From the IMG/VR virus record IMGVR_UViG_2529293062_000009: a DNA stretch of 22,729 bases; one strand, 5' to 3'. Positions 1 to 19,112 of the stretch are shown one piece after another. Made by a program: the position numbers and the translations under genes. The notes under the pieces were generated by a model. That model saw nothing but the letters and a program-made list of their open reading frames with translations. It was not told where the DNA came from and searched no databases. This stretch comes from a virus (taxonomy: Duplodnaviria; Heunggongvirae; Uroviricota; Caudoviricetes). Every line of letters begins with the position of its first letter. Position 1 is the first letter of the stretch.

Positions 1-1094
1 TGAGGCAACATGATTTCAGCAGCAGAGAAACCGGCTCTCATTGCATCCAATTCATCATCTGTAGGTGTTCTCGCTGTAGTACCGTTTTCAGATGCTGTAA
101 ATAGAATAATGTTATTGCCATCGATATTATTACTTAGCAACGATGGACTGTGAGTGCTAATGATGATTTGCTTTTGATTTCGAGCACCTTTAAGCGTGTT
201 TTCAATGATTTCAGGTATAAATTTCACAATTTCACTGTTCAAAGATAATTCAGGTTCTTCCATTAAAAGTAGCTGTCTTTTCTCAAGAAGTGACCACATC
301 AAACCGATTAAACGTAATGTTCCATCTGAAAACTGCTCTTCTTTTTGCCATCCAGCATTTGGCCTCCAGTGCTCGTACCTTGCTTCTAAGTGTGGTTGCC
401 CTGATTCATCTCTTTCAAAGCGTAACTCTTTAAACTGCGGAACAGCAATAGATAGCCCTGCTTGTATTTTTTTTAGCCAGGCATCTCTGGTTCGTGTTTG
501 AGTATTTGCTAATCGGTCAAGAAACCCTTGTCCAAATGGGTCATCATCTATTTTATTAACCCCAATTTCTTTGGCGAATTTGAGCAACTGTGGAACTATA
601 TGCAAGTATGTAACAGATGTGAAGAAATCTGAAATCACTCTAAAATTTTGATTTGCTAAAATTTGCTCAAGATGTGTTTGAGTCAACTGAACAGCATCAG
701 CATGATCATGAGCATTGGGGCGGCTCAATATATGCTCACCATTTTTATATACATTTTCACTAGTGACGTGAATTAACTGTTTCCCTCGGCCAGATGCCTT
801 GAAAATAAGTTCATAAATCCACTCGTTATCGTCTTCCTCAAAATATATGGTTATACCTACTTCGGTATCATTTCTCGCTTGAAGACAACGGAGTTTTGTT
901 ATGCCACCTCTATCATTGACCGCTTTTTGTAAACCACCACCATCTCTACAAATATCACTCATAAAGCGAAAGACATCAAGGAAGTTTGATTTACCTACAG
1001 CATTTGGCCCTATGATGTAAACACGGTCATGAAGAGGAACATCAATATTCCTGAAGTTTTTCCAATTTTTCAGTTTTAATCGAGTAATATTCAT
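1..1094 (-). CDS. ABC/AAA-type ATPase (OLD/AriA/PtuA-like superfamily), 3' end truncated by window; candidate defence component
   Basis: Minus-strand ORF with ATG at 1094..1092, SD AAGAGG upstream, running past position 1 (about 364 codons in window). Translation starts MNITRLKLKNWKNFRNIDVPLHDRVYIIGPNAVGKSNF (Walker A GPNAVGKS) and contains LLLMEEPE (Walker B-like) and IIISTHSP (H-loop-like). The start lies 1 nt after the cI stop codon. Confidence 0.7.
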   Translation of the reverse strand, partial: MNITRLKLKNWKNFRNIDVPLHDRVYIIGPNAVGKSNFLDVFRFMSDICRDGGGLQKAVNDRGGITKLRCLQARNDTEVGITIYFEEDDNEWIYELIFKASGRGKQLIHVTSENVYKNGEHILSRPNAHDHADAVQLTQTHLEQILANQNFRVISDFFTSVTYLHIVPQLLKFAKEIGVNKIDDDPFGQGFLDRLANTQTRTRDAWLKKIQAGLSIAVPQFKELRFERDESGQPHLEARYEHWRPNAGWQKEEQFSDGTLRLIGLMWSLLEKRQLLLMEEPELSLNSEIVKFIPEIIENTLKGARNQKQIIISTHSPSLLSNNIDGNNIILFTASENGTTARTPTDDELDAMRAGFSAAEIMLP

Positions 1095-1095
1095 A

Positions 1096-1662
1096 TTAGC
1101 CTCTTATCTTGAATTCTGCTATAACTTTGCCGATGAATACAAGGTCATTAATGTTCATATCAACAATGATATTCCCATAGTTAATCTTAACTTTATTATC
1201 AGGAATTCTAATAACTTGTTTTATAGAATGCTTTCCATCAATGGAGATTAACCAATCACCATCAACTACATCTGTGAAATCCCTCTCAATAAAATAAGAG
1301 TTATTCCCGTTTGATATCACAGATGGTGATGATAAACCATCAGGAATGAACACCTTGTCAAACATTAGTGTTCCTGCATCCAATAGCACTCCATCAATCA
1401 ATTTTATTTTTTGAATATTGATGATGTCAGAAGTTAAATATTCATGTTTAGGAGGTAAGCCTGTTACCAGCCACTTTATGTTTACTCCTGTTTCGAGCGC
1501 GCACTGAATAACCCAATCAGAAGGGAATGAATCTCTCATGTAGCGTGTAGCAAGACTGCTTTTTGATATGCCTAGTTGTTCACATAACGCCTGTCTTGTA
1601 GTGAACCCATAGGCTTCAACCATCCTTTCGATAGCTTTCTTTCCACCTTGACTAAAATCCAT
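1096..1662 (-). CDS. cI: 186-type CI immunity repressor (N-terminal helix-turn-helix)
   Basis: Minus-strand ORF; start chosen at the internal ATG 1662..1660 (MDFSQGGKKAIERM...) with SD AAGGTG 6 nt upstream; stop TAA 1096..1098. HTH-like segment TRQALCEQLGISKSSLATRYMR. Divergent from the Apl-like gene. About 188 aa, similar to 186 CI. Confidence 0.75.
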   Translation of the reverse strand: MDFSQGGKKAIERMVEAYGFTTRQALCEQLGISKSSLATRYMRDSFPSDWVIQCALETGVNIKWLVTGLPPKHEYLTSDIINIQKIKLIDGVLLDAGTLMFDKVFIPDGLSSPSVISNGNNSYFIERDFTDVVDGDWLISIDGKHSIKQVIRIPDNKVKINYGNIIVDMNINDLVFIGKVIAEFKIRG

Positions 1663-1788
1663 CGATTTCACCTTGTGAACTTTATGGTTGACGATTTCAA
1701 TTTGTGATCTTATAGTCGCATTGATTTCAAAATGTGACTTACAACTACTCGTCAATGTTAAACACACTTAAACAGGAGATGTTGCCTT
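1663..1788. promoter_or_regulatory. Lysis/lysogeny switch region between divergent cI and apl-like genes, with three phased direct repeats (candidate operator/Apl sites)
   Basis: Direct repeats GATTTCA-N4-GTGA at 1664..1678, 1693..1707 and 1723..1737, spaced 29 to 30 bp; the first overlaps the cI SD and start. Confidence 0.5.
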
Positions 1789-3366: not shown

Positions 3367-3593
3367 TGGCTGATGCAATGGATCTCGTACAGCAGCGCGT
3401 TGAAGAAGAACGCCAACGCCATATCCGTGCTGCCCGTGCCAAAACGCCGGGCGTGTCCCGCGTGCTTTGCGTTGAGTGTGAAGCGCCAATTCCGCCAGCA
3501 CGCCGCCGTGCCATTCCGGGTGTGCAGCTTTGCATTACCTGTCAGGAAATCGCAGAGCTGAAAGGCAAACATTACAACGGAGGTGCTGTATGA
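3366..3593 (+). CDS. TraR/DksA-family C4 zinc-finger protein
   Basis: 75 aa with CxxC-N17-CxxC (CVECEAPIPPARRRAIPGVQLCITC); such a protein is typical of P2-like early operons. Confidence 0.7.
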   Translation: MADAMDLVQQRVEEERQRHIRAARAKTPGVSRVLCVECEAPIPPARRRAIPGVQLCITCQEIAELKGKHYNGGAV

Positions 3594-4444
3594 GCACCAT
3601 CCTGAAATGGGCAGGAAATAAAACCGCCATAATGTCCGAACTGAAAAAGCATCTTCCTGCTGGCCCGCGACTGGTTGAACCTTTCGCGGGTTCCTGTGCA
3701 GTGATGATGGAGACGGATTACCCCAGCTATCTTGTTGCGGATATTAATCCTGATTTAATCAACCTCTATAAAAAGGTTGCTGCTGATTGTGAGGCGTTTA
3801 TATCTCGTGCCAGAGCTTTATTTGAGGAAGCAAACAGGGAGGTGGCTTATTACAACATAAGGCAGGAGTTTAATTACTCCACTGAAATTACTGATTTCAT
3901 GAAAGCGGTATATTTCCTGTATCTCAATCGTCACGGTTACCGTGGTTTATGTCGCTATAACAAGAGCGGGCATTTCAACATTCCCTACGGTAATTATAAA
4001 AATCCGTATTTCCCTGAAAAAGAAATTCGCGCATTTGCAGAGAAAGCCCAGCGGGCAACGTTTATCTGCGCCAGCTTTGATGAAACGCTGGCGATGTTGA
4101 AGGTGGGGGATGTGGTGTATTGCGATCCGCCTTATGACGGTACGTTTTCCGGCTATCACACTGATGGTTTCACTGAAGATGATCAGTATCACCTGGCATC
4201 CATTCTTGAACATCGGTCATCAGAAGGACATCCGGTCATTGTTTCTAACAGTAACACGTCTTTGACCCGGTCCCTTTATCGTAATTTCACTCACCACTAC
4301 ATCAGGGCGAAACGCAGCATCGGCGTTGCAGCGGGGGAGGGAAAATTTGCAACAGAGATGATTGCCACTAAATCTGCTAATTGGTTTAGTGCCGATTTTA
4401 GTAGGGGACGTGACTCTACTGTTATTTTCGGGGTGCAAGTGTGA
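3590..4444 (+). CDS. dam: Dam-family DNA N6-adenine methyltransferase
   Basis: ATG 3590 with SD GGAGGTG, overlapping the upstream stop (ATGA). N-terminal ILKWAGNK motif (Dam FxKWAGGK-like) and catalytic DPPY (CDPPYDGTF). Confidence 0.85.
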
Positions 4445-5271
4445 AAGAAATGCACCACGGAATTCATCATTTCCATGGGACGCCTGTCTGGGGAAGTGCT
4501 GGCGACGTTCATCGTATTGCGGTGAGCGGAGCTGGCGCTTTCGTCTCCTATGTACGACCAGATCAGATTGCGGCGTCCATTCAGCACGCTCAGGTCGTCG
4601 GCATTGATAACGGCGCATTTTCTGCATGGGTGCGTGGGCTAAAAATTAACTGGAGTGATTTTTATAAATGGCTCCTGAACTATTACCACCATCCTAAGGT
4701 CGCTTTTTTTGTCATTCCTGATGTTGTGGACGGAGGTGAACGTGACAATGATGCCCTGATAAACGAAGTTCCGAAAATGTTCTACGGGAAGGCAACTCCC
4801 GTCTGGCATCTGCACGAGTCAATCGATCGGCTTATCGAGCTATGTCGTGAATGGCCTCGTGTCTGCTTTGGATCGTCTGGTGAATATGCGGCTATCAGAA
4901 CTGCGCACTGGCATCGTCGTATGCAGGACGCTTTTGAAGCAATTTATTGCCGACACAATTTCAAAACAGCTGTTCATGGTTTGCGCATGCTTGACGGTCG
5001 TGTGTTGGGAAATTACCCACTGGCGACTGCCGACAGTACAAATCTTGCCTGCAATGTCCCCAAATTTAATAGCAAATATCCTGAGCTGACGCGGGCTATT
5101 CAGGAGGCTGAGTATTCGCGCAATCTGACGGAAAAGGAGCTGAAAGCTGTCATTCTGAAAAACCGTTGCGCAATTTTAAAAGGTGCAATTGAAGCTGTTC
5201 GCCCACCTTCAGTTTCTGATTGGCTGTCGAATGGTTTGCAGCCTTCACAGCTCGAACTGGAGATTGCGTAA
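4441..5271 (+). CDS. hypothetical early protein, possibly TGT-fold (DpdA-like) DNA-modification enzyme
   Basis: 276-aa ORF; start GTG 4441 (overlapping the dam stop) or ATG 4450. Weak by-eye resemblance to tRNA-guanine transglycosylase motifs (TPVWG; IDNGAFS vs DSGGFQ; FFVIPD vs FDECT; FGSSGE vs GGLAVGE). Function not established. Confidence 0.4.
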
Positions 5272-7643
5272 TGAACTACAGCTATTCCTGGAATGCTGAG
5301 AAAAAAGCAATCAATCCTTACGTAGAGACGGAAGAGCAATCTTCAGTTTCTGCGCTTTCAAACCTGATCGCTCTGTACGCTGCCGATAACGAGCAGGAAC
5401 AGCTGCGCCGCGAGGCACTGAGTGATCAGGTCTGGGAGCGTTATTTCTTTAATGAATCCCGTGATCCTGTCCAGCGCGAAATGGAGCAGGATAAGCTCAT
5501 TAGTCGGGCAAAGCTGGCGCATGAGCAGCAGCGTTTTAATCCAGATATGGTCATTCTGGCGGACGTTAATGCCCAGCCTTCCCATATCAGCAAGCCACTG
5601 ATGCAACGTATTGAATACTTCAGCAGCCTGGGCAGGCCAAAGGCTTATTCCCGCTATTTGCGTGAGACGATTAAGCCATGTCTGGAACGGCTGGAGCATG
5701 TACGCGACTGTCAGCTATCCACTTCTTTTCGCTTTATGGCAAGCCATGAAGGGCTGGACGGCCTGCTGATCCTGCCTGAAATGAGTCAGGATCAGGTGAA
5801 ACGCCTGTCCACCCTGGTAGCTGCGCATATGAGCATGTGCCTTGATGCAGCTTGTGGCGATTTGTATGTCACCGATGACGTTAAGCCAGAAGAAATCCGC
5901 AAGACATGGGAAAAGGTGGCAGCGGAAACCCTGCGTCTGGATGTCATCCCGCCTGCGTTTGAGCAACTCCGCCGGAAAAGAAACCGCCGTAAACCCGTGC
6001 CCTATGAACTCATTCCGGGTTCGCTGGCGCGTATGTTGTGCGCTGACTGGTGGTACCGGAAATTATGGAAGATGCGTTGCGAATGGCGGGAAGAGCAGTT
6101 GCGTGCTGTCTGCCTGGTCAGCAAAAAAGCATCTCCCTATGTCAGCTATGAAGCCGTGATGCATAAACGTGAGCAGCGCCGTAAGTCGCTGGAGTTTTTT
6201 CGTTCTCATGAACTGGTGAACGAAGACGGCGACACGCTGGACATGGAGGATGTGGTAAACGCCAGCAGCAGCAACCCTGCGCATCGCCGCAATGAGATGA
6301 TGGCCTGTGTTAAAGGCCTGGAGCTTATCGCGGAAATGCGCGGTGACTGCGCCGTTTTCTACACCATCACCTGTCCGTCACGTTTCCATTCCACGCTAAA
6401 TAATGGCAGGCCCAACCCAACTTGGACAAATGCGACGGTAAGACAAAGCAGTGATTATCTGGTCGGCATGTTTGCTGCATTTCGTAAGGCGATGCACAAA
6501 GCCGGATTGCGGTGGTATGGCGTGCGGGTGGCTGAGCCGCATCATGACGGTACAGTTCACTGGCACCTGTTGTGTTTTATGCGCAAAAAAGACCGCCGCG
6601 CCATCACTGCATTACTGCGTAAGTTTGCCATCCGTGAAGACCGCGAGGAACTGGGCAATAACACTGGGCCGCGCTTTAAGTCTGAGTTGATTAACCCGCG
6701 CAAAGGTACGCCAACAAGCTACATCGCGAAATACATCAGTAAGAACATTGACGGGCGTGGTCTGGCTGGCGAGATCAGCAAGGAAACGGGGAAATCCCTG
6801 CGTGATAATGCTGAATACGTTAATGCCTGGGCGTCTCTGCATCGTGTTCAGCAATTCCGCTTCTTTGGCATTCCGGGGCGTCAGGCTTACCGTGAACTGC
6901 GATTGCTGGCTGGTCAGGCGGCAAGGCAACAGGGGGACAAAAAAGCAGGTGCGCCGGTACTGGATAACCCGCGCCTTGATGCCATCCTGGCTGCTGCTGA
7001 TGCTGGTTGTTTTGCCACCTACATCATGAAGCAGGGCGGCGTACTGGTTCCCCGCAAATATCACCTCATCAGAACCGCTTATGAAATCAACGAAGAGCCG
7101 ACCGCCTATGGCGATCACGGCATTCGTATTTATGGCATCTGGTCACCTATTGCAGAGGGCAAGATCTGCACTCATGCCGTGAAGTGGAAAATGGTTCGTA
7201 AGGCCGTTGATGTTCAGGAGGCGGCAGCCGACCAGGGCGCTTGCGCCCCTTGGACTCGTGGCAATAACTGTCCCCTTGCTGAAAATTTGAACCAACAGGA
7301 GAAAGATAAATCAGCTGATGGGGACCCCAGAACGGACATTACCAGCATGGATGACAAGGAGTTGCACGAATACCTGCACAGTATGAGCAAAAAAGAGCGC
7401 CGGGAACTGGCAGCAAGGTTACGCCTGGTGAAACCGAAACGGCGTAAAGACTACAAACAGCGAATTACAGACCATCAGCGACTGCAGCTCGTGTATGAGC
7501 TGAAGTCCAGAGGATTTGATGGCAGCGAGAAAGAGGTCGATTTACTCCTTCGCGGAGGCAGTATTCCGTCAGGAGCAGGCCTGCGTATCTTCTATCGGAA
7601 CCAGCGTTTGCAGGAAGATGATCAGTGGCGGAACCTGTATTAA
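5271..7643 (+). CDS. A: Replication initiation endonuclease (P2 gpA-type rolling-circle HUH nickase)
   Basis: 790 aa from ATG 5271 (TAATG overlap with the upstream stop). HUH-like [10 protein letters not shown] and tyrosine motif YIAKYISK. Size and position as P2 A (about 761 aa as recalled). Confidence 0.88.
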
Positions 7644-7735: not shown

Positions 7736-7755
7736 TACTGTAAATATAAACAGTG
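7736..7755 (+). promoter_or_regulatory. LexA (SOS) box overlapping a promoter upstream of the small-ORF/DinI-like pair
   Basis: TACTGTAAATATAAACAGTG, i.e. CTGT-N8-ACAG with an AT-rich spacer (consensus TACTGTATATATATACAGTA); TTTACA-like -35 just upstream at about 7713..7718. Confidence 0.7.
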
Positions 7756-7796: not shown

Positions 7797-7985
7797 ATGC
7801 AGGACTATTTTTTGGAGTCTTTGAAGCTCCAGCGCATTGATTTTTTTCTTAAGCTTGTAGCGGCTAGTGAGTGTAGTGATGAAGAGAAGGGGCTGGCTCT
7901 GCAGTGGGTTTCTGAATTGACTGATGAACTCATGGCAAAAATCAGAACCCACGAATACAACCGCTCAATGGATGTCATCAGCTGA
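7797..7985 (+). CDS. small SOS-regulated protein, candidate Tum-like antirepressor
   Basis: ATG 7797 with SD AGGAGG 7787..7792; 62 aa (MQDYFLESLKLQRIDFF...); directly downstream of the LexA box and upstream of the DinI-like gene. Confidence 0.5.
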   Translation: MQDYFLESLKLQRIDFFLKLVAASECSDEEKGLALQWVSELTDELMAKIRTHEYNRSMDVIS

Positions 7986-7995
7986 GGTGACTTTT

Positions 7996-8229
7996 ATGCG
8001 CATTGAAATAATGATCGATAAAGAGCAGAAGATTAGCCAGTCTACCCTGGACGCCCTTGAATCCGAGCTTTACCGCAATCTGCGCCCCCTGTATCCCAAA
8101 ACGGTAATTCGCATTCGCAAAGGTAGCTCTAACGGTGTGGAACTAACCGGACTGCAACTGGACGAAGAAAGAAAACAAGTGATGAAAATTATGCAGAAGG
8201 TGTGGGAAGACGACAGCTGGCTGCATTAA
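7996..8229 (+). CDS. DinI-family protein
   Basis: ATG 7996 with SD GAGGTG; 77 aa, MRIEIMIDKEQKIS...KVWEDDSWLH, resembling E. coli DinI (MRIEVTIAK...TWESADDWF). Confidence 0.75.
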   Translation: MRIEIMIDKEQKISQSTLDALESELYRNLRPLYPKTVIRIRKGSSNGVELTGLQLDEERKQVMKIMQKVWEDDSWLH

Positions 8230-8604: not shown

Positions 8605-9519
8605 ATGCCATACCAATTGGTAGAGCTTAGCCCCGTAGCTAACGATCTTGAACAGTTAGGAACCAAAGAGAAGTTTTGGTTCTATTTCTCCGATGACACT
8701 GTAAATTTGCAGTTGTTTAAGTACTCTAGGCCAGGTACTGGCGAGCATTGGTCTGAAAAGTGTGCTGCTGAGTTATGTCATTTGCTTAACATTCCACATG
8801 CTAGCTATGATTTGGCGCGATACAATGGTCGATTCGGTGTGGTGACTCAGAATATCATTCCATCTGGTTTCCGGATGGTAATGGGAAATGAAGTGCTTCA
8901 CAGTTCGACATTCGATTATCCTGGGCCTTTACAAGCCGGGGAAAAGCCGGTAAGGGTCAGAGAACACACTGTCACAAGGGTCTTGGGTTGTTTAGATAGG
9001 GAATCTATCAAGCCTCCTCCGAGTGTATATGATCTAACCGGGCTAAATGCAGCAGATGTATTTTGTGGATATTTGATGCTCGATGCACTTGTGAGTAATC
9101 AAGATCGCCACCATGAAAATTGGGCAATCATGCTTAACAATGAAACTGGTGAGCAGTTTTTGTGTCCAACATACGATCATGCCGCTAGTTTAGGAAGGGA
9201 GATGTTAGATGATGAGCGTAACGAACGGCTTAATACTAAAGATAAAAATCGACAAATCCCATGTTTTGTAAGAAAAGCTCGCTCTGAGCTATTCAAAGCA
9301 AAAACTGATAAAAAGCCCTTGCTGACTGTTGAAGCATTTCAACATGCAGTTGAAGGGAGAGTTGCCGCTCGCGACCATTGGTTAGGTAAGTTGAGCGTTT
9401 TAACAGAAGATTCCATTACAGATGTGTTTAACCAAGTGCCTTCATCGTGTATATCCGACAGTGCACGTAGATTTGCAACGTTAATGGTAATGGAAAATCG
9501 CAGAAGGTTACTAGAATGA
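8605..9519 (+). CDS. HipA-like Ser/Thr protein kinase (compact, HipA C-terminal kinase core)
   Basis: 304 aa. Gly-rich loop-like GTKEKFWF (residues 19-26), catalytic DxHxxN as D167-R-H169-H-E-N172 within LVSNQDRHHENWAIM (nt about 9094..9120), downstream CPTYDHAASLG resembling the HipA Mg-binding Asp motif. Stop overlaps the next start (ATGA). Confidence 0.75.
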   Translation: MPYQLVELSPVANDLEQLGTKEKFWFYFSDDTVNLQLFKYSRPGTGEHWSEKCAAELCHLLNIPHASYDLARYNGRFGVVTQNIIPSGFRMVMGNEVLHSSTFDYPGPLQAGEKPVRVREHTVTRVLGCLDRESIKPPPSVYDLTGLNAADVFCGYLMLDALVSNQDRHHENWAIMLNNETGEQFLCPTYDHAASLGREMLDDERNERLNTKDKNRQIPCFVRKARSELFKAKTDKKPLLTVEAFQHAVEGRVAARDHWLGKLSVLTEDSITDVFNQVPSSCISDSARRFATLMVMENRRRLLE

Positions 9520-10256
9520 CTAATACAAACTCCGTTTACGTCGCATGGCAGGCACCAGATACCAGAGACTGGCATGTTGTTGGTAACTTGCAAGAGCGCA
9601 AATCGGGGTATGTTTTCAGGTATACCAAAGGTGCTCTTAAATCTTCTAAATTTACAAAGTTTAGCGGCATGAGTGATGTTCGTGAAACTTATGTATCGGA
9701 AGAATTGTTTCCTCTTTTTAAAAATCGCCTTTTATCACCGAGACGTCCAGAGTATCCGAGTTTCATTAAATGGCTTGGATTTGAAGAAGATAAGGTAAAT
9801 CCTATCGATATTCTTGCTCGCTCGGGAGGCTTACGAAGCACTGATCAGCTGCAGATTTTCAAAAAAATTGATTTTGATTCTGATGGTAACTTTGAGCATT
9901 TTTTCTTCTTACATGGACTTGGTTACTTGAATAGCTTAGCTAATGCTCGTGTATCTGAATTGAAACCGGGGCAAATTTTGCGTCTTTGCTTGGATCTTCA
10001 AAATGAATACGATGGGGATGCTGTTGTCGTTCGTGCAGATAAACCAGCTGAAATCGTTGGTTACTGCCCTAGGTATTTAAGTAATGACATCAAGAAGATG
10101 TTATTGGATGATCCAAAATCAATCACTTTAACGGTCGAAAAGATTAGCGATGATGCTCCTCATAACTATCGGTTATTATGTAAATTATCAGGGGTACTAA
10201 GCCAAGCCTGTCAATCGACGCTGATTCCTCAAGATGAGTTTGAACCTATTGAGTAA
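9516..10256 (+). CDS. HIRAN-motif protein (C-terminal HIRAN-like domain), partner of the HipA-like kinase
   Basis: 246 aa, translationally coupled to the kinase gene. C-terminal LRLCLDLQNEYDGDAVVVRADKPAEIVGYCPRYLSN matches the HIRAN pattern (NPYDxNAIxV...VGYIPR); N-terminal part unassigned. Confidence 0.55.
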   Translation: MTNTNSVYVAWQAPDTRDWHVVGNLQERKSGYVFRYTKGALKSSKFTKFSGMSDVRETYVSEELFPLFKNRLLSPRRPEYPSFIKWLGFEEDKVNPIDILARSGGLRSTDQLQIFKKIDFDSDGNFEHFFFLHGLGYLNSLANARVSELKPGQILRLCLDLQNEYDGDAVVVRADKPAEIVGYCPRYLSNDIKKMLLDDPKSITLTVEKISDDAPHNYRLLCKLSGVLSQACQSTLIPQDEFEPIE

Positions 10257-10290: not shown

Positions 10291-11331
10291 TTATGGGGCT
10301 ATATCTAGCGAGTAGGTATCAAACCGTATCGCCTCCTTGCCAAGCCAATCATTCATCTCCTGTAATCGCTTTTGTAGTGGCATTAGCTCATTTCGGACGA
10401 ATACACGGCTTGCCTTCTCCACATCCCCAAACCCCCCAACATTATTCGGCATAATCCCCATCATTTGCGGTGGCACACGGTGCGCTGCCATCATGTCATC
10501 GCGGCTGACATTTTTGATATTCAGAAACTCATCCTTCGCCGCGACTTCTGACAATGGGATGATCTGAAGTCCGTCCTTTTTGCCGTTAGGCGAGTACATA
10601 AACAGATTGCGGAAGTTACCTGGTCCTTTGGCGCTTTTCATCGCGTTACGGAGGTTGTTTACATCCTCCTGGTTCTGCGCGGCGTCGGTCATGTACATGA
10701 TGAAGCCTGCATGACTGCCGTTAATGTAATACTTTCGACGGAACAGCGTGGCGGACTCGTTGAGCAGGGCTGACGGAATGGCAGAAAGATAACCAGGCAG
10801 GCCGTAGATCTCCTGGTTGATGTCCGGTTCCATCAGATGAAAAATGTTGCCTTTCGTGAACTGATACGGCTGTGTAGTCATGCCGTATTGCACAAACCAG
10901 TAGGTATCAAGGTCTAACCCGCGTCGGGTGTATTTTGCCAGTGCAGGCTCAAGGGCGATAACTTCACCGAAGCGGTTCGTGCGTTTCTCCAGGTAGGCGT
11001 TACCAAAAACCAGATAGTCCTGTACAAAACGCGAAAAAGCCTGCTGGCTGAGCAGCGGGTGAGGGATGTAGGTGCTGGTCAGAATGTTGCACTTCACTGC
11101 AATCGGTGAGCTGTGATGCACGGCGGCGCGGAAGGTTCGCGCCAGTCCGTCGAAACTCACAGGCGGCTCGTACCAACGATCCATCTGTACGCATTCCACA
11201 TAGTCCAGCAGTTCGCGGCGGTCCAGAACAGGAACGGGATCACCGAAGCTGAATGCTTCGGCTGAAGTCTGGCTTTTATGCTGGATCTGTTTCGTCGACG
11301 CAGCGCGGTTCTTCTTACTCTTTCCCATCAA
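10291..11331 (-). CDS. Q: Portal protein (P2 gpQ-type)
   Basis: 346 aa, minus strand, directly downstream of the terminase gene and overlapping its stop; size and position as P2 Q (about 344 aa as recalled). Confidence 0.88.
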   Translation of the reverse strand: MMGKSKKNRAASTKQIQHKSQTSAEAFSFGDPVPVLDRRELLDYVECVQMDRWYEPPVSFDGLARTFRAAVHHSSPIAVKCNILTSTYIPHPLLSQQAFSRFVQDYLVFGNAYLEKRTNRFGEVIALEPALAKYTRRGLDLDTYWFVQYGMTTQPYQFTKGNIFHLMEPDINQEIYGLPGYLSAIPSALLNESATLFRRKYYINGSHAGFIMYMTDAAQNQEDVNNLRNAMKSAKGPGNFRNLFMYSPNGKKDGLQIIPLSEVAAKDEFLNIKNVSRDDMMAAHRVPPQMMGIMPNNVGGFGDVEKASRVFVRNELMPLQKRLQEMNDWLGKEAIRFDTYSLDIAP

Positions 11332-13094
11332 AAAATCTCCACAATATTGCTGGTATTGGCGGACTCGCCCTGCAGCGGTTCGTTAAACAGTGCGTGCATT
11401 GTTGCCCAGGCCAGATCGGCATGGCTGGCTTCTTCGCTGCGGCTGGCTTCATAGGTCGGGCGGTTGCCACTGGCAGTGGTAGCGCGACGGATTGCCATAA
11501 ATGACTGCGCAATGTCGGTGTGCCCGGCGTCAAACTCCAGACGGCGGTGGCTGATAATGTCGTAGGCCTTGAGTACCAGGGCGTTTTTAACGTTGGGGTT
11601 ATAGACAAACTCCCTGACGGCAGGAAAAAACGCTTTCACGTTCTCGTAAACCCCGTGACCGACGCCGGTCGAGTCGATACCGATATAGGTCACGTTATAC
11701 TGTTCGGTCAGTTTTTTGATGGCGTCAGCCTGGGCGCGGAAGTCCATCCCGCGCCACTGGTGACGCTCAAGAATGCGGAACTTACCACCCGGCACGGCTG
11801 GCGGAGCCACCACCACGCATCCGGCACTGTCGCCGTTCTGCGTACCTTTTGCCGGGTCATAACCGATCCACACTTCGCGCCAGCCAAACGGGCGCAGGGC
11901 CAGTGCATGAAAGTCGGTCCAGACTTCCCAGCTGTCCACCATGCACGCCTGCAGTTCGCTGAGCGGGAACACGGACGCGAGATCGTCCACGAACTCGCAC
12001 ATCAGCAGGTTCTGGTATTCGTCCGGGCTGTACTCCATGCGCAGCTGGTCGAGGTCGAACAGGTTACAGCCGCCGCGCACCGCATCTTCCACGGTGACTA
12101 TCTGGCGGTATTGCCCGTCTGCGCACAGTAGGCCGGGGGCCAGATTGCTGTGGGACAGGTCGATGTCCACCTTGTCAGCTTTGTTGCGTCCACGGTTGAA
12201 CAGCGCACCGGACCAGAACGGATAAGCACTGTGGGTCAGGCTGGATGGCGTGGAAAAATAGGTTTGTCGCCATTTCTTGTGAATAGCCATACCGGAAGCC
12301 ACTTTGCGCAACTCCTGGAATTTCGGTATCCAGAAATATTCATCCAGATACAGGTTGCCGTGGTAACTCTGCGCCGTGCGGGCATTGGTGCCGAGGAAGT
12401 AAAGCGTGGCCCCGTTAGGAAGCACCATCGGATCGCCTTTCAGCTCCACCTCGACTTCTTTGGCGAAGTCGATGATGTACTGCTTAAAGACGTGAGCCTG
12501 TGCCTTACTGGCAGAAAGGAAAATCTGGTTACGTCCGGTAAGCAGGGCGTCAATCAGGGCTTCACGGGCAAAGTAAAAGGTCGCGCCGATCTGGCGTGAC
12601 TTCAGCAGGTTGCGGATGCGGTTGGTTTTTCCGGCTTCCCACCAGTGGCGCTGGTAGTTGAACATGGAGGAATGGAAGATTTCTTCCAGTTTCTCTATCT
12701 GTTCATCGGTGAAAACATTCTTTTCCGGCTGACGGCGCGGGCCTTTGTTGCGGTTGGCGACGTTAGGGTTTAAGTCGGCTTCGTTGCCGCCATTGTTAAA
12801 CTTGCCGATCCGCGCGTGGCGCTCCGACTGGCGCGCCAGCAGGTCAATTTCTTTGAAATCTTTCCCTTCTTTGTGCTCCTTCATAATGAGCTGGCAGTAA
12901 CGTGCGGCGGTGGTGAGCTGCATCTGATCCAGCGGCCCATAGTCACCCCACTTGTCGCGTTTCTTCCAGCTGTGAACGGTTGCAACTTTCTCGCCCAGCA
13001 TTTCAGCAATGCGGGCTACGCGGTATCCCTGAAAGTACAGCAGCATGGCCTGCCGACGGGGATCGAGATCTGCGGGTGTCAGTGTGGTGTTCAT
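11328..13094 (-). CDS. P: Terminase large (ATPase) subunit (P2 gpP-type)
   Basis: 588 aa, minus strand, divergent from the scaffold/capsid operon as in P2 (P about 590 aa as recalled). Confidence 0.88.
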   Translation of the reverse strand: MNTTLTPADLDPRRQAMLLYFQGYRVARIAEMLGEKVATVHSWKKRDKWGDYGPLDQMQLTTAARYCQLIMKEHKEGKDFKEIDLLARQSERHARIGKFNNGGNEADLNPNVANRNKGPRRQPEKNVFTDEQIEKLEEIFHSSMFNYQRHWWEAGKTNRIRNLLKSRQIGATFYFAREALIDALLTGRNQIFLSASKAQAHVFKQYIIDFAKEVEVELKGDPMVLPNGATLYFLGTNARTAQSYHGNLYLDEYFWIPKFQELRKVASGMAIHKKWRQTYFSTPSSLTHSAYPFWSGALFNRGRNKADKVDIDLSHSNLAPGLLCADGQYRQIVTVEDAVRGGCNLFDLDQLRMEYSPDEYQNLLMCEFVDDLASVFPLSELQACMVDSWEVWTDFHALALRPFGWREVWIGYDPAKGTQNGDSAGCVVVAPPAVPGGKFRILERHQWRGMDFRAQADAIKKLTEQYNVTYIGIDSTGVGHGVYENVKAFFPAVREFVYNPNVKNALVLKAYDIISHRRLEFDAGHTDIAQSFMAIRRATTASGNRPTYEASRSEEASHADLAWATMHALFNEPLQGESANTSNIVEIF

Positions 13095-13140
13095 GGCACA
13101 AACCTACAGCCTTGAATGAAGGCTTTCCCCGCCTGCGGTT

Positions 13141-13158
13141 TGTGTGGTTGTCGGTACA
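13141..13158. promoter_or_regulatory. Late-promoter activator dyad (TGT-N12-ACA; Ogr/B/Delta-type) in the divergent P/O intergenic region
   Basis: TGTgtggttgtcggtACA lies about 80 bp upstream of ATG 13237, in the position of P2 P_O/P_P. Confidence 0.6.
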
Positions 13159-13236
13159 AATACCGCGCATTGTTTCACTGCCCCCATCACCGCAACCATA
13201 AGGCTCCAGTAAGTTATTTCTAACGGAGCACGGCTC

Positions 13237-14070
13237 ATGACAGTGAAAGCAAAGCGTTTTCGCATCGGGGTGGAAGGTGCCACCACCGACGGACGCGAAA
13301 TCCAGCGTGAATGGCTGGAACAGATGGCAGCCAGCTACAACCCGGCGGTGTATACCGCGCTGATTAACCTTGAGCACATCAAGTCTTATCTCCCGGACAG
13401 CACCTTTAACCGTTACGGCAAGGTGACGGCGCTGTTTGCTGAAGAAATCACGGAAGGCCCGCTGGCAGGCAAGATGGCGCTGTATGCCGACGTTGAGCCA
13501 ACGGAGTCCCTGGTGGAATTGGTGAAAAAAGGCCAGAAATTATTCACCTCTATGGAAGTCAGCCCGAAGTTCGCTGATACGGGCAAAGCCTACCTGGTCG
13601 GCCTGGCTGCCACTGATGACCCTGCCAGTTTGGGTACGGAAATGCTGACATTCAGCGCCAGTGCAGCCCATAACCCGCTGGCAAACCGCAAGCAGAATCC
13701 CGCCAATCTCTTTACCGCCGCAGAGGAAACGGTGATCGAACTGGAAGAAATCCAGGAGGACAAACCGTCCCTGTTTGCCCGTGTCACGGCGCTGTTTACC
13801 AAAAAAGAGCAGTCCGACGATGCCCGGTTCTCTGATGTGCATAAGGCCGTGGAGCTGGTCGCCACTGAGCAGCAAAACCTGAGCGCACGCACCGAAAAAT
13901 CCCTGTCTGAGCAGGAAGAACGTCTGTCTGAGCTGGAGACTGCCCTGCAGGCACAGCAGACCGCCTTTAACGAACTGGTGGACAAGCTGAGTCATGAAGA
14001 CAGCCGCCAGGACTACCGCCAGCGTGCAACAGGCGGTAACGCCCCCGCTGACACTCTGACCAATTGCTGA
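13237..14070 (+). CDS. O: Capsid scaffolding protein (P2 gpO-type)
   Basis: 277 aa, first gene of the rightward late operon, SD GGAG upstream; acidic, coiled-coil-like C-terminal half. Confidence 0.85.
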   Translation: MTVKAKRFRIGVEGATTDGREIQREWLEQMAASYNPAVYTALINLEHIKSYLPDSTFNRYGKVTALFAEEITEGPLAGKMALYADVEPTESLVELVKKGQKLFTSMEVSPKFADTGKAYLVGLAATDDPASLGTEMLTFSASAAHNPLANRKQNPANLFTAAEETVIELEEIQEDKPSLFARVTALFTKKEQSDDARFSDVHKAVELVATEQQNLSARTEKSLSEQEERLSELETALQAQQTAFNELVDKLSHEDSRQDYRQRATGGNAPADTLTNC

Positions 14071-14086
14071 TGGAGCACAAAACCCG

Positions 14087-15145
14087 ATGAAGAAGAATAC
14101 CCGCTTTGCTTTTAACGCTTACCTGCAGCAGCTGGCGCGTCTGAACGGTGTGGCAGTTGAAGAACTGTCCAGCAAGTTCACCGTAGAGCCGTCCGTGCAG
14201 CAGACGCTGGAAGACCAGATCCAGCAGTCCGCCTCTTTCCTGACGCTGATTAACGTCACGCCAGTGACTGAGCAGTCTGGTCAGTTGCTGGGGCTGGGTG
14301 TTGGCAGCACCATTGCCGGAACCACTGATACCACCGCGAAAGAGCGAGAACCTGTCGATCCGACGCTGATGGTCGATGTGGAATACAAATGCGAACAGAC
14401 CAACTTTGACACGGTGCTGACCTACGCGAAGCTGGACCTGTGGGCGAAGTTTCAGGATTTCCAGGTGCGTATCCGTAACGCCATCGTGAAACGTCAGGCA
14501 CTGGACCGCATCATGATCGGCTTTAACGGCGTGAAGCGTGCGAAAACCTCCAACCGTAGCGAAAACCCGCTGCTGCAGGATGTGAACAAAGGCTGGCTGC
14601 AGAAAATCCGTGAGGATGCACCGGATCACGTCATGGGCAGCACCACCACGGGCGGTGAAACCACACCGGGCGCGGTGAAAGTCGGGAAAGGTGGCGAATA
14701 TGCCAACCTGGACGCCGTAGTGATGGATGCCGTCAATGAGCTTATCGACGTGGTCTACCAGGACGATGACGATCTGGTGGTGATTTGCGGTCGTGAACTG
14801 CTGTCTGACAAGTATTTCCCGCTGGTCAACAAAGAGCAGGAAAACAGTGAAAAACTGGCTGCCGATATGATCATCAGTCAGAAACGCATGGGTGGTCTGC
14901 AGGCGGTGCGTGCGCCGTTCTTCCCGCCGAATGCGCTGCTGATCACCCGTCTGGATAACCTGTCCATCTACTGGCAGGAAGATACCCGCCGCCGTTCAGT
15001 TATCGACAACCCGAAACGTGACCGGATTGAAAATTTTGAATCCGTTAACGAAGCCTATGTGGTTGAGGACTATCGCTGCGCTGCACTGGTGGAAAACATC
15101 CAGATTGGTGACTTCAGCGCCACCGCAGCAGAAACCGGAGCGTAA
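14087..15145 (+). CDS. N: Major capsid protein (P2 gpN-type)
   Basis: 352 aa, follows the scaffold gene; P2 N is about 357 aa as recalled. Confidence 0.88.
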   Translation: MKKNTRFAFNAYLQQLARLNGVAVEELSSKFTVEPSVQQTLEDQIQQSASFLTLINVTPVTEQSGQLLGLGVGSTIAGTTDTTAKEREPVDPTLMVDVEYKCEQTNFDTVLTYAKLDLWAKFQDFQVRIRNAIVKRQALDRIMIGFNGVKRAKTSNRSENPLLQDVNKGWLQKIREDAPDHVMGSTTTGGETTPGAVKVGKGGEYANLDAVVMDAVNELIDVVYQDDDDLVVICGRELLSDKYFPLVNKEQENSEKLAADMIISQKRMGGLQAVRAPFFPPNALLITRLDNLSIYWQEDTRRRSVIDNPKRDRIENFESVNEAYVVEDYRCAALVENIQIGDFSATAAETGA

Positions 15146-15148
15146 TTC

Positions 15149-15799
15149 ATGAGCCTGAGTCCCGCACGGCAGCATCGCCTGCGCGTTCAGGCTGAACAGG
15201 CCGCTCGCGAGGGTGGCAGTGTTCGCCACGCGTCGGGCTATGACCTGATGCTGCTGCAACTGGCGGAAGACCGCCGCCGTCTCAAGGGCGTTCAGTCCAC
15301 GGTCAAAAAAGCGGAAATCAAGGTGGAGCTGCTGCCGAAATATGCCGCCTGGGCGGAGGGCGTTCTGGCTGCCGGAGGCGCTCAACAGGATGACGTGCTG
15401 ATGTACGTGATGCTGTGGCGCATTGATGCCGGAGATTATGCAGGGGCGCTGGAGATCGGGCGTCATGCCCTGCGTCATGGCTGGGTGATGCCGCTGGGTA
15501 ACCGCAACGTGCAGACCGTGCTGGCAGAGGAAATGGCAGACGCGGCGCAGAGCGCAATGCTTGCCGCCACCGGCTTTGATGCCGATCTGTTGCTGCAGAC
15601 GCTGGAGCTGGCAGACGGTCTGGATATGCCGGACCAGTCACGGGCGCGTCTGCATAAAGCGATTGGCGCTGTCCTGAGTGAAAGCAACCCGGCTTCCGCC
15701 CTTAATCATCTCAACCATGCGTTACAGCTCGATCCTCGCTGTGGCGTGAAAAAAGACAAACAGCAGCTGGAGCGCAGACTGCGCAATGACAGCCGCTGA
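15149..15799 (+). CDS. M: Terminase small (endonuclease) subunit (P2 gpM-type)
   Basis: 216 aa, ATG 15149 with SD GGAG, immediately after the capsid gene as in P2. Confidence 0.8.
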   Translation: MSLSPARQHRLRVQAEQAAREGGSVRHASGYDLMLLQLAEDRRRLKGVQSTVKKAEIKVELLPKYAAWAEGVLAAGGAQQDDVLMYVMLWRIDAGDYAGALEIGRHALRHGWVMPLGNRNVQTVLAEEMADAAQSAMLAATGFDADLLLQTLELADGLDMPDQSRARLHKAIGAVLSESNPASALNHLNHALQLDPRCGVKKDKQQLERRLRNDSR

Positions 15800-15894
15800 C
15801 AGAACGTGCCCCCGCGCACGGGCGGCACGGGGTGGCGAAAGGCACTGCCACATCAAAACCCCGTCCACCGCCCTCTATTTCAGGAGAAAGCAGC

Positions 15895-16359
15895 ATGAAG
15901 TTTGTTGCGCCAGAACAGGCACCGGAACAGGCGGAAATCATCAGGAATACGCCGTTCTGGCCTGATGTGGACCTGTCGGAGTTTCGCAGCGTGATGCGCA
16001 CTGACGGCACGGTGACGCAGCCGCGTTTAAAGCAGGTTGCGCTGTCGGCAATTTCGGAGGTCAACGCAGAGCTGTATGAGTTTCGCAGACGCCAGCAGAT
16101 GCTGGGGTATGCCTCGCTGGCAGAAGTTCCGGCGGAACAGCTGGACGGCAAAAGTGAGCGCATTCAGCACTATTTCAACGCGGTTTACTGCTGGGCACGC
16201 GCCATGCTCAACGAACGATACCAGGACTATGACGCCACGGCGTCCGGTGTGAAGCGGGGCGAGGAACTGGCGGAAGCAAGCGGTGATTTGTGGCGTGACG
16301 CCCGCTGGGCCATCAGCCGGGTGCAGGATGCGCCGCACTGCACAGTGGAGCTTATCTGA
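15895..16359 (+). CDS. L: Head completion/stabilisation protein (P2 gpL-type)
   Basis: ATG 15895 with strong SD AGGAGAAAG; the track ORF extension to 15832 needs a GTG start with no SD. Stop overlaps the X start. Confidence 0.8.
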   Translation: MKFVAPEQAPEQAEIIRNTPFWPDVDLSEFRSVMRTDGTVTQPRLKQVALSAISEVNAELYEFRRRQQMLGYASLAEVPAEQLDGKSERIQHYFNAVYCWARAMLNERYQDYDATASGVKRGEELAEASGDLWRDARWAISRVQDAPHCTVELI

Positions 16360-16562
16360 TGAAAGTGCGTGCGCATCAGTATGACACGGTGGACGCGCTT
16401 TGCTGGCGTCATTACGGGCGCACGCAGGGGGTCACGGAGCAGGTACTGAAGGCAAATCCGGGGCTTGCCGAATACGGCCCCTTTTTACCTCACGGGCTGC
16501 AGGTGGAGCTGCCGGACATTCCGACCACCACCACCGTGCAGACCGTCCAGCTATGGGACTGA
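16359..16562 (+). CDS. X: Tail protein X (P2 gpX-type)
   Basis: 67 aa, the same length as P2 X, in the same position between L and the lysis genes. Confidence 0.8.
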   Translation: MKVRAHQYDTVDALCWRHYGRTQGVTEQVLKANPGLAEYGPFLPHGLQVELPDIPTTTTVQTVQLWD

Positions 16563-16565
16563 ATT

Positions 16566-16781
16566 ATGACGCTTGAGCGAATCAGCGCCTTTATCACGTA
16601 TTGCATCGCCGTCGTGCTGGCCTGGCTGGGCGATTTGTCCATCAAGGATGCCTCAACGCTGGGCGGCCTGATGATTGGTGTACTGATGCTGGCTATCAAC
16701 TGGTACTACAAACACAAATCCTACCAGCTTCTGCGCGACGGGCAGATCTCGCGGGAGGACTATGAATCCATCAATCGTTAA
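16566..16781 (+). CDS. Class II holin, probable pinholin
   Basis: 71 aa with two hydrophobic segments (ISAFITYCIAVVLAWLG, LGGLMIGVLMLAINWYY) and a charged C-terminus; directly upstream of a SAR-type endolysin. Confidence 0.65.
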   Translation: MTLERISAFITYCIAVVLAWLGDLSIKDASTLGGLMIGVLMLAINWYYKHKSYQLLRDGQISREDYESINR

Positions 16782-17274
16782 ACGCTGCCTTGTCGGGGCC
16801 GTGCTGGCTATTGCTGCCACGCTGCCGGGTTTTCAGCAGCTTCACACCTCCGTGGAGGGGCTGAAACTGATTGCTGATTACGAAGGCTGTCGTCTGCAGC
16901 CGTATCAGTGCAGCGCGGGTGTCTGGACCGACGGCATTGGTAATACATCGGGCGTCATTCCCGGCAAAACAATCACGGAACGACAGGCAGCAGAAGGGCT
17001 GATCTCCAACGTGCTGCGTGTGGAGCGGGTACTGGAAAGGTGTGTGAAGCAACTGCCACCACAGAAGGTGTATGACGCTACGGTGTCGTTTGCCTTCAAC
17101 GTGGGGACGGGCAATGCCTGCAGCTCCACGCTGGTGAAATTGCTCAATCAGCGGCGCTGGGCGGATGCGTGCCGACAGTTGCCGCGCTGGGTTTATGTAA
17201 AAGGTGTGTTTAATCAGGGGCTGGATAACCGCCGTGCGCGGGAGATGGCCTGGTGTTTACAGGGAGCAAACTGA
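16762..17274 (+). CDS. SAR endolysin (T4-lysozyme-like muramidase with N-terminal signal-anchor-release domain)
   Basis: 170 aa. N-terminal weakly hydrophobic Gly/Ala-rich segment CLVGAVLAIAATLPG, then catalytic E-D-T arrangement (DYEGCRLQPYQCSAGVWTDGIGNT). SD GGGAGGA upstream. Confidence 0.8.
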   Translation: MNPSIVKRCLVGAVLAIAATLPGFQQLHTSVEGLKLIADYEGCRLQPYQCSAGVWTDGIGNTSGVIPGKTITERQAAEGLISNVLRVERVLERCVKQLPPQKVYDATVSFAFNVGTGNACSSTLVKLLNQRRWADACRQLPRWVYVKGVFNQGLDNRRAREMAWCLQGAN

Positions 17275-17275
17275 A

Positions 17276-17653
17276 ATGAAAAAGAAATTAATCAGCGGAC
17301 TGTTTCTGATGTTATGGATGGCGCTGTTAATCGCAGCAATGGTGTATCCGCAGGGGATTTTTCCGGTACTGGCAGCGTCCGGCGTTTGGGTAGCCTGTTT
17401 GCTGACATGGGCGGTAATTCCGGTAGCACTGGCTGCGTTAATTAAGAATGGCCCGCTCTGGCAGGAGTTAAGGGCATCTTTACTGAAGACAATTACCCGA
17501 AAAGAAAACGTATTTATCAGTTGGGTGATGCGATTGCTGATTGTTGTAAGTCTCGCCTGGACGGGGTGGGCTATTACCCTGGTCTTTTATCTACTGACCG
17601 TTATTGCCTTCTGGATCACCCGTAATCAGATGGCGAAACAGGTAGCAGCATGA
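17276..17653 (+). CDS. lysA: LysA-like membrane protein (lysis timing)
   Basis: ATG 17276 with SD GGAG; 125 aa with several hydrophobic helices; follows the endolysin as in P2. Confidence 0.6.
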   Translation: MKKKLISGLFLMLWMALLIAAMVYPQGIFPVLAASGVWVACLLTWAVIPVALAALIKNGPLWQELRASLLKTITRKENVFISWVMRLLIVVSLAWTGWAITLVFYLLTVIAFWITRNQMAKQVAA

Positions 17654-18078
17654 ACCGGTTGCTGCTGGTTGTGCTGGCGTTATTACTGGCGGCGCTGGGC
17701 TGGCAGACGTGGCGGCTGGCTGATGCCAGCCAGACCATCAGCACGCAGGCAGACGAGCTGCAGAGCAAAAGCCAGGCACTGGCAAAGAGCAACAGCCAGC
17801 TTATCAGCCTGTCCATTCTGACTGAAACCAATAACCGGGAGCAGGCGCGGCTCTATGCCGAAGCAGAACAGACCAGCACGCTGCTGAGACAACGACAACA
17901 CCGGATCGAGGAACTGAAACGTGAGAACGAGGATTTACGCCGCTGGGCTGATACTCCTTTGCCTGCTGACATTATCCGGCTGCGGAAACGTCCGGCACTC
18001 ACCGGAGGTATGGCTTACCGTCAGTGGTTGTCCGCGAGTGACGCCGTGTCGGCTGGATCAGGCAACGCCGCGCACTAA
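17650..18078 (+). CDS. lysB: LysB, Rz-like inner-membrane spanin
   Basis: 142 aa; N-terminal TM segment LLLVVLALLLAALGW, then a charged coiled-coil-like region; ATGA overlap with lysA. Confidence 0.7.
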   Translation: MNRLLLVVLALLLAALGWQTWRLADASQTISTQADELQSKSQALAKSNSQLISLSILTETNNREQARLYAEAEQTSTLLRQRQHRIEELKRENEDLRRWADTPLPADIIRLRKRPALTGGMAYRQWLSASDAVSAGSGNAAH

Positions 18079-18211
18079 CGGTGATCTGAACGCGTTGCTG
18101 GATGAAACGGAGGCCGCCTGGGCGGTCTGTGCAGACAAAGTGGACATGATTATTGCGTGTCAGGAGCGAAACAGTGAACAAACCACAATCCCTGCGCCAC
18201 GCCCTCAATAA
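17921..18211 (+). CDS. lysC: LysC, Rz1-like outer-membrane lipoprotein spanin, embedded in lysB in another frame
   Basis: 96-aa ORF in a different frame starting inside lysB (GTG 17921); signal peptide plus lipobox LLCLLTLSGC; Pro-rich C-terminus. Confidence 0.55.
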   Translation: MRTRIYAAGLILLCLLTLSGCGNVRHSPEVWLTVSGCPRVTPCRLDQATPRTNGDLNALLDETEAAWAVCADKVDMIIACQERNSEQTTIPAPRPQ

Positions 18212-18605
18212 AGCGGTGCCTTATGTCCGCAATAACCCGGACAAACTGCATCTGTTTGTGGATAACGGTTCGCTGGTTGCCACGGGGGCCAGCTCCATGT
18301 CGTGGGAGTACCGTTACACACTGAACGCGGTGATTGAGGATTTCAGCGGCGACCAGAATCTGCTGATGGCCCCGGTTTTGCTGTGGCTGAGGGATAACCA
18401 GCCCGATGCCATCAATAACCCGGCGTTACGGGAAAAGCTATTCACCTTTGAGGTGGATATTCTGCGCAACGATGTCTGTGATATCAGCCTGAACCTGCAA
18501 CTGACGGAACGTGTGCTGGTCAGCACTGACGGCAGTGTGTCGAGCGTTGAAGCTATAGCGGAACCTGATGCACCTGAAGAAATGTGGACGGTGAAACGTG
18601 GCTGA
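18174..18605 (+). CDS. R: Tail completion protein (P2 gpR-type)
   Basis: Start chosen at GTG 18174 with SD AGGAG 18162..18166 (the track ORF begins at an upstream TTG); about 143 aa; position as P2 R. Confidence 0.75.
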   Translation: MNKPQSLRHALNKAVPYVRNNPDKLHLFVDNGSLVATGASSMSWEYRYTLNAVIEDFSGDQNLLMAPVLLWLRDNQPDAINNPALREKLFTFEVDILRNDVCDISLNLQLTERVLVSTDGSVSSVEAIAEPDAPEEMWTVKRG

Positions 18606-19044
18606 ACTGCAGAAGGTGGACGACTGGCTGAGTGCCTTGCTGGCGAATCTGGAACCAGCCTCGAGAAGCCGCATGATGCGCCAGCTGGCGCAGGAACTTC
18701 GCCGGACACAGCAGCAGAATATCAGGATGCAGCGCAACCCTGACGGCAGCAGCTATGAACCGCGACGGGTAACAGCACGCAGTAAAAAAGGCCGTATCAA
18801 ACGTCAGATGTTTGCAAAGCTGCGCACCACAAAATACCTGAAAACTGCCGCCAGCACCGACTCTGCCAGCGTGCAGTTTGAAGGCAAGGTGCAGCGCATT
18901 GCCCGCGTTCACCATTACGGCCTGCGAGATCGCGTCAGTCGTAAGGGACCGGAGGTGCGTTACGCAGAGCGTCGCCTTCTGGGTGTAAATGATGATGTTG
19001 AGGCAATGACCCGCGACATGATTCTGCAATGGCTGGCGGGGTGA
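18598..19044 (+). CDS. S: Tail completion protein (P2 gpS-type)
   Basis: 148 aa (P2 S about 150 aa as recalled); GTG start overlapping the end of R. Confidence 0.75.
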   Translation: MAELQKVDDWLSALLANLEPASRSRMMRQLAQELRRTQQQNIRMQRNPDGSSYEPRRVTARSKKGRIKRQMFAKLRTTKYLKTAASTDSASVQFEGKVQRIARVHHYGLRDRVSRKGPEVRYAERRLLGVNDDVEAMTRDMILQWLAG

Positions 19045-19048
19045 TCTT

Positions 19049-19066
19049 TGTATCAGCACTGATACA
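19049..19066. promoter_or_regulatory. Late-promoter activator dyad (TGT-N12-ACA) upstream of the baseplate operon (P_V-equivalent)
   Basis: Near-perfect palindrome TGTATCAGCACTGATACA, 47 bp upstream of the V start, in the S/V intergenic gap where P2 has P_V. Confidence 0.75.
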
Positions 19067-19112
19067 AGTTGCAGCACTGCCGCCTTTCTTCCCCTGATGG
19101 CAACCTTTCCCT

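Follow-up and report, generated by a model that had tools for sequence, protein, structure and literature searches.

A HEC-01-type ATPase–TOPRIM gene pair behind the repressor gene of a 186-like Escherichia coli prophage: a candidate lysogen-expressed anti-phage cassette

The window analysed here is the whole 22,729-nucleotide stretch of Caudoviricetes DNA deposited as IMG/VR record IMGVR_UViG_2529293062_000009, and it comes from a prophage of 186-like (P2-related) type that is inserted beside rcdA. At its left edge the minus strand carries the gene of a 186-type immunity repressor (cI), annotated in RefSeq as 'phage repressor protein CI', followed by the gene of an ATPase (Table 1). The repressor gene ends with the TAA codon at 1098-1096, the single base 1095 follows, and the ATPase gene starts with the ATG at 1094-1092 and runs without a stop through 364 codons as far as base 1; an earlier, sequence-only reading had described this junction in the same way. 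That reading had also called the ATPase gene AT-rich, which holds since its GC content (0.38 at 1-1094), like that of cI (0.36), lies well below the 0.56 of the late genes at 10291-22729.

Table 1. Coordinates, strands and supporting evidence for features of the window
Feature	Position	Strand	Evidence or remark
ATPase gene (HEC-01A type)	1..1094	-	codons 1-364 of 377 in window
H-loop region IIISTHSP	144..167	-	residues 310-317
Walker B and catalytic Glu, LLLMEEPE	249..272	-	residues 275-282
ABC signature-like FSDGTLRL	309..332	-	residues 255-262
Walker A / P-loop GPNAVGKS	987..1010	-	residues 29-36
Putative Shine-Dalgarno AAGAGG for ATPase	1100..1105	-	read from sequence; within last cI codons
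186-type immunity repressor cI, 188 aa	1096..1662	-	Pfam Phage_CI_repr 1e-28, Phage_CI_C 1.7e-26
pR-like promoter TTGACG-17 nt-TATAGT, facing cI side	1688..1716	+	consensus scan; equals L001 9688-9716
Dam-like methylase gene	3530-4444		
Replication gene A	5220-7643		
DinI-like ORF	7924-8229	+	Pfam DinI 1.3e-22
ORF	8605-9519	+	PADLOC PDC-M03A 2e-122; weak HipA_C
ORF	9516-10256	+	PADLOC PDC-M03B 7e-93; HIRAN domain
Portal gene	10291-11331	-	

Several features further into the window are recorded here in their own right. A second low-GC cargo pair occupies 8605-10256 on the plus strand, in the classical P2 hotspot between gene A and the portal gene, and its matches to the PDC-M03A and PDC-M03B models make it a candidate defence system. 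The only exact CTGT-N8-ACAG in the window (7738-7753, plus strand) is situated just ahead of the DinI-like ORF, an arrangement that presumably resembles that of the LexA-controlled Tum antirepressor of phage 186. An ORF of 276 aa (4441-5271, plus strand), located between the Dam-like methylase gene and gene A, has no Pfam or PADLOC match; at the equivalent point the phage 186 record annotates a phosphoadenosine phosphosulfate reductase-like gene.

The part of the ATPase gene beyond the window could be recovered from complete genomes. Positions 1-1700 of the window are at least 99.6% identical in 17 of 5,426 complete E. coli genomes, and the same 17 genomes hold together one cI allele, the cassette formed by the ATPase gene and its downstream neighbour, and one int allele. 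In the prophage of E. coli strain 300709 (L001; NZ_CP025903) cI is followed after 1 nt by the ATPase gene (377 aa), after a further 3 nt by the gene of a DUF4276 protein (198 aa) on the same strand, and after another 79 nt by the integrase gene (339 aa). The last 13 codons of the ATPase gene and its stop thus lie to the left of the window, as does the whole partner gene. The sequence-only reading had placed the ATPase where integrase would be expected; the ATPase does follow cI, but int is displaced two genes further and not replaced. The gene does run off the window, as that reading had noted, and the partner does lie outside; the C-terminal domain that it suspected there does not exist, as 364 of the 377 residues are inside the window. 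Megablast of window 1-1700 against 50,697 deposited phage genomes gave no match, and tblastn of the ATPase against the same genomes gave no homologue; prophages and genomes are the only known sources of the cassette. By megablast only window 1-2080 matches the prophage of strain 300709 (99.6%). Past position 2080 the early region is mosaic relative to it, with a replication protein A of 807 aa against one of 671 aa in L001. Beyond int this prophage carries a glycine-rich 104-aa ORF and then ends, adjoining rcdA. The ORF (L001 5838-6152, minus strand, left of the window) contains about nine GPGGGLYT-like repeats, has a GC3 of 0.66 and no Pfam, PADLOC or PHROG match, and, lying between int and the prophage end, occupies the place of orf69 in 186.

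The ATPase retains an intact Walker A motif, ABC signature, Walker B motif and H-loop, the first, third and last of which had been pointed out before and are all present, and this qualifies it as an OLD-family ATPase in the broad sense. Among 20 ATPase homologues, down to 54% identity, G29, P30, N31, A32, G34, K35 and S36 of the P-loop are invariant, as are F255, S256, G258, T259, L260, R261 and L262 of the signature-like motif, E279, E280, P281 and E282 around the catalytic glutamate, and Q309, T314, H315 and S316 of the H-loop region. In the HEC-01A family as examined here the invariant EEPE stands in place of the usual DEPE of ABC ATPases, a glutamate replacing the Walker B aspartate. The Pfam matches are AAA_21 (2e-34) and AAA_15 (5e-17), and matches to PHROGs are confined to families without known function. 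The PADLOC model HEC-01A (PDLC04180) aligns with the full protein at 2.1e-154, pairing residues 1-375 with profile positions 1-379 of 382, and with the window fragment at 2.4e-151 (profile positions 1-367 of 382). Sequence comparison with the PDB aligns the P-loop N-terminus alone (with GajA, PtuA, Rad50, OLD and AriA), so that the ATPase has no close solved structure. Its AlphaFold model (pLDDT 84) is predicted to be an SMC/Rad50/PtuA/AriA-like ABC head and not a transporter subunit; from the motifs an architecture shared with P2 Old, GajA, AriA and PtuA had been proposed before. A housekeeping ABC-transporter ATP-binding subunit, to which weak ABC_tran and transporter-family matches would point, is refuted by the extended sequence; the ABC_tran match stays below the Pfam threshold, the modelled head is of SMC/Rad50 type, and membership, which calls for an ABC_tran domain above threshold and a permease partner, was rejected. 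Next to no weight is given to it.

The extension of the sequence to the left also brought to light a nuclease-type partner of the kind that had been predicted, a TOPRIM-type protein. It matches the PADLOC model HEC-01B (PDLC04193) at 6.1e-63, with residues 1-194 aligned to positions 1-191 of 195, and all 13 of its PADLOC matches are HEC-01 models. Its sole Pfam match is DUF4276, which in this copy scores 26.7 bits against a cut-off of 30.2; the same label is given to the protein by the precomputed Pfam annotation and by RefSeq. A comparison with PHROGs gave no match. Across 31 partner homologues E8, D9, E13, D61, D63, E94 and E96 are invariant, and a conserved glutamate together with a DxD motif is the pattern expected of a TOPRIM site, here predicted from sequence conservation. 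The structural model of the partner most resembles the TOPRIM parts of AriB and the OLD nucleases. A TOPRIM fold with a conserved Glu and DxD metal site is what defines the nuclease half of the OLD family in the broad sense, and the partner would accordingly be placed there beside its ATPase.

HEC-01 (Hma-embedded candidate 01) was described as a candidate system composed of an ABC ATPase together with a TOPRIM protein (Payne et al., 10.1101/2024.01.29.577857). The cassette is a HEC-01 pair by the PADLOC definition on ATPase, partner and adjacency: both genes match the models end to end, are adjacent on the same strand, and encode an ABC ATPase along with a TOPRIM-like DUF4276 protein. The earlier reading of the locus as a defence candidate holds up. 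The pair differs from the original HEC-01 in that it lies outside any Hma system, as prophage cargo directly behind the immunity repressor. The record of HEC-01 in protection assays is divided. With the representative of Payne et al. no protection was seen against any phage used (10.1101/2024.01.29.577857), whereas a different homologue was protective in E. coli B against one or more of T4, T5 and T7 (10.1101/2024.09.26.614923).

Other systems that combine such an ATPase with a nuclease fit less well. PARIS pairs the ABC ATPase AriA with AriB, a DUF4435 TOPRIM protein, and forms class 4 of the OLD family. The partner described here is a DUF4276 protein without an AriB match and the ATPase of 377 aa is to be compared with the 53-55 kDa of AriA, to which its similarity is limited to generic AAA_21 motifs; membership of PARIS was rejected for want of an AriB-type DUF4435 partner. 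In the eight-gene methylation-associated defence system (MADS) of Pseudomonas aeruginosa the MAD3-MAD4 pair likewise consists of an AAA_15/21 ATPase and a DUF4276 protein, and the MAD3 equivalog NF047739 is the best NCBIfam match of the ATPase. That match reaches 76.5 bits against a cut-off of 420, however, and mad1, mad2 and mad5-8 are all absent nearby, where the neighbours are cI and int. Membership of MADS was rejected on this score and on the absence of the mandatory mad6-8. P2 Old and the other class 1 OLD proteins hold ATPase and TOPRIM in one polypeptide and P2 Old sits at a different phage locus, while the cassette has two separate ORFs and a partial PADLOC Old match (2e-16), and this class was rejected too. 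Gabija, OLD class 2, consists of the single-polypeptide GajA and the UvrD-like helicase GajB; it was dismissed because the two genes here come without a helicase between cI and int, and GajA matches cover the P-loop region only. The AbiLi match of the ATPase is partial (3.5e-26, 50-259 of 326) and the partner has no match to the RloB-type AbiLii, which led to the rejection of AbiL.

More than 8000 ATPase homologues were counted at E <1e-10, and at least 537 stretches in a collection of one genome per species encode a relative. When the partner was sought by profile in 80 species-level loci, 78 of which have room downstream, a DUF4276-type gene was found directly after the ATPase gene and on the same strand in 77 of the 78. 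In Morganella and P. aeruginosa the two-gene unit stands alone between housekeeping genes. At the nucleotide level the copies of Morganella and Erwinia resemble that of E. coli from the ATPase start codon onward, and the resemblance fades within the partner gene. A Klebsiella prophage has the cassette in the same slot between cI and int, with gaps of 2 and 5 nt; its element is collinear at 74% nucleotide identity, its ATPase 90% identical and its cI only 59%. The same slot is used in a Ewingella prophage, where cI and ATPase as well as ATPase and partner genes overlap by 4 nt. According to a Pfam scan of nine directly flanking proteins from the 80 loci, many distant copies have an N6_N4 methylase on one side and a ResIII helicase on the other, or adjoin DUF499. 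HEC-01 was originally defined from this 'Hma-embedded' setting.

Since many distant homologues lie within methylase-helicase operons, the pair might depend on partners missing from this locus. It could then be an accessory of methylation-linked systems (Hma, MADS, type III-like restriction-modification) that is stranded without them and is either inert or dependent on a host or phage methylase. This is in line with the lack of protection by the isolated pair of Payne et al. and with MADS, in which MAD3-MAD4 are accessory genes and a mad5 deletion was obtainable only with mad2 or mad3 removed as well. The authors of that work suggest that loss of mad5 alone is lethal, which may reflect a share of the MAD3 ATPase in a toxic activity. 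The accessory role is nevertheless improbable, given that the pair occurs alone in Morganella, in P. aeruginosa and in prophages of three genera. The fully conserved catalytic residues, the 70-90% identity of the ATPase among the three prophage genera and the solitary pairs argue for selection on an autonomous unit. A tie to the Dam-like methylase of the window in particular was rejected, as sister prophages carry that methylase whatever their cargo. A different and only tentative proposal is that HEC-01 pairs are guards in the manner of PARIS, set off once restriction is knocked out by a phage, with the prophage copy as a free-standing version and the slot between cI and int as a repressor-driven expression site for swappable cargo, set apart from an SOS-controlled int. 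It is possible, if rather unlikely; a guard role would explain the usual embedding of HEC-01 in methylase-helicase, restriction-like operons.

The position of the cassette directly behind cI bears on its expression. The putative Shine-Dalgarno sequence of the ATPase gene lies inside cI, and translation of the ATPase is apparently coupled to that of the repressor. The predicted pR-like promoter marks the switch region in which the leftward lysogenic transcript must start. Its layout agrees with that of the pR/pL switch in the record of phage 186; no leftward promoter was pinpointed. In that record pL drives a 'lysogenic operon' of cI, int and orf69, in which cI and int overlap by one base and the terminator lies beyond attP. 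In L001 no terminator-like site was found between cI and int on the cassette strand, and co-expression with the repressor would be the natural reading. The one-nucleotide gap, the Shine-Dalgarno sequence in cI and the lack of a terminator-like site fit the anatomy of a lysogenic operon, as do the overlapping stop and start codons in Ewingella. Because of its tight packing after cI, the cassette is most likely expressed from the repressor transcript and transcribed with cI in every lysogen, much as proposed from the junction alone.

The region ahead of int, between it and the DUF4276 gene and outside the window, has features of its own (L001 7282-7360). A LexA-box-like CTG-N10-CAG about 40-55 nt upstream of int overlaps a TTGA-type -35 element, and a hairpin that follows it covers the ribosome-binding site of int. 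The -35 element, LexA-box-like site and hairpin are present in 7 of 7 related prophages with any cargo and are absent in phage 186, and in three of the sister prophages (L002, L004 and L006) the hairpin carries a T-run and is terminator-like. With a LexA-box-like promoter and a hairpin before int, the stretch from cI to int may not be one simple operon. The arrangement suggests a transcription unit of cI and cargo, and an int under separate SOS control; such a possible separate control of int leaves the coupling of the cassette to cI unaffected.

Sister prophages show that the slot between cI and int is variable. Two prophages at the same rcdA attachment site have there a 662-aa ATPase with AriA- and Old-like matches (L002 5542-7530) and a 63-aa ORF (L003 5669-5860), respectively. 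Two more have PD-Lambda-1 (DUF4041) between cI and int (L004 5555-7231, where the match is 2.3e-120, and L006 4576-6252), and phage vB_EcoM-813R9 has a homologous 558-aa ORF at the position of the L004 gene. PD-Lambda-1 is a validated defence system. On the cI side nucleotide similarity among the sister prophages ends inside cI, past the N-terminal domain, so that the variable block comprises the C-terminal half of cI and the cargo. An attempt to fix precise insertion boundaries was given up for the same reason, as no clean insertion scar is definable. A defence hotspot between cI and int is known from K139-like P2-related Vibrio phages (Rousset et al. 2022, PMC9122126), and another one, between int and primase, from P2-related phages (PMC13586616). 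The cassette shares with the K139-like hotspot the variable slot between cI and int, and with that hotspot and lambda rexAB the placing of defence cargo downstream of the repressor, where it would be expressed in every lysogen. The host clade (Enterobacterales 186-like phages at the rcdA site) and the type of cargo differ, and the proteins of the cassette are unrelated to RexAB.

The same comparison speaks to two further explanations. The pair could serve the phage's own DNA transactions, such as integration and excision, replication restart or recombination, in the manner of RecF, SbcCD or Rad50, as its place beside int and the resemblance of the modelled fold to SMC, Rad50 and RecF heads may suggest. 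Phage 186 and sister prophages at the same attachment site lack the pair, however, which is therefore dispensable; it is moreover AT-rich cargo, and elsewhere this module forms part of restriction-like operons. Such a role is highly improbable. The pair could also be a toxin-antitoxin-like addiction module, in which the ATPase restrains a TOPRIM toxin and the module stabilises the prophage, or its immunity region, without any protection against other phages. The Pfam name of the AAA_21 domain is 'putative AbiEii toxin, Type IV TA system', PDB entry 8v45 labels AriA an antitoxin, the cassette always accompanies one cI and one int allele in the 17 E. coli genomes, and the negative result of Payne et al. 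would agree with it. Against this stand the anti-phage activity of PARIS, itself an ATPase-TOPRIM pair of the same logic, the validated PD-Lambda-1 in the same slot of sister prophages and the HEC-01 homologue reported to protect, and an addiction module is quite unlikely.

The pair is probably a lysogen-expressed ATPase-TOPRIM anti-phage cassette of HEC-01 type, carried as cargo between cI and int. Produced from the repressor transcript in every lysogen, the ATPase would bind the nuclease in a complex, keep it under control and detect the incoming phage, if OLD nucleases, Gabija and PARIS are a guide. The TOPRIM nuclease, activated or released in an ATP-dependent step, would thereupon cut nucleic acid, either DNA or tRNA, and the infection would be halted, to the protection of the lysogen.

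The literature already covers this type of system, its fold assignments and hotspots of this kind, and the cassette is no new kind of system. HEC-01 is a widespread ATPase-TOPRIM candidate system whose activity is contested, and the prophage supplies a repressor-linked copy in E. coli in what would be its natural expression context behind a prophage repressor. As a native E. coli copy behind a repressor it is open to tests with the usual coliphage panels in its own host. The cargo slot between cI and int gains from it an enterobacterial example; in sister prophages that slot is taken by PD-Lambda-1 or an OLD-like ATPase. Should the tentative guard reading be true, the prophage copy would offer a native-host model for the trigger and the substrate of HEC-01.
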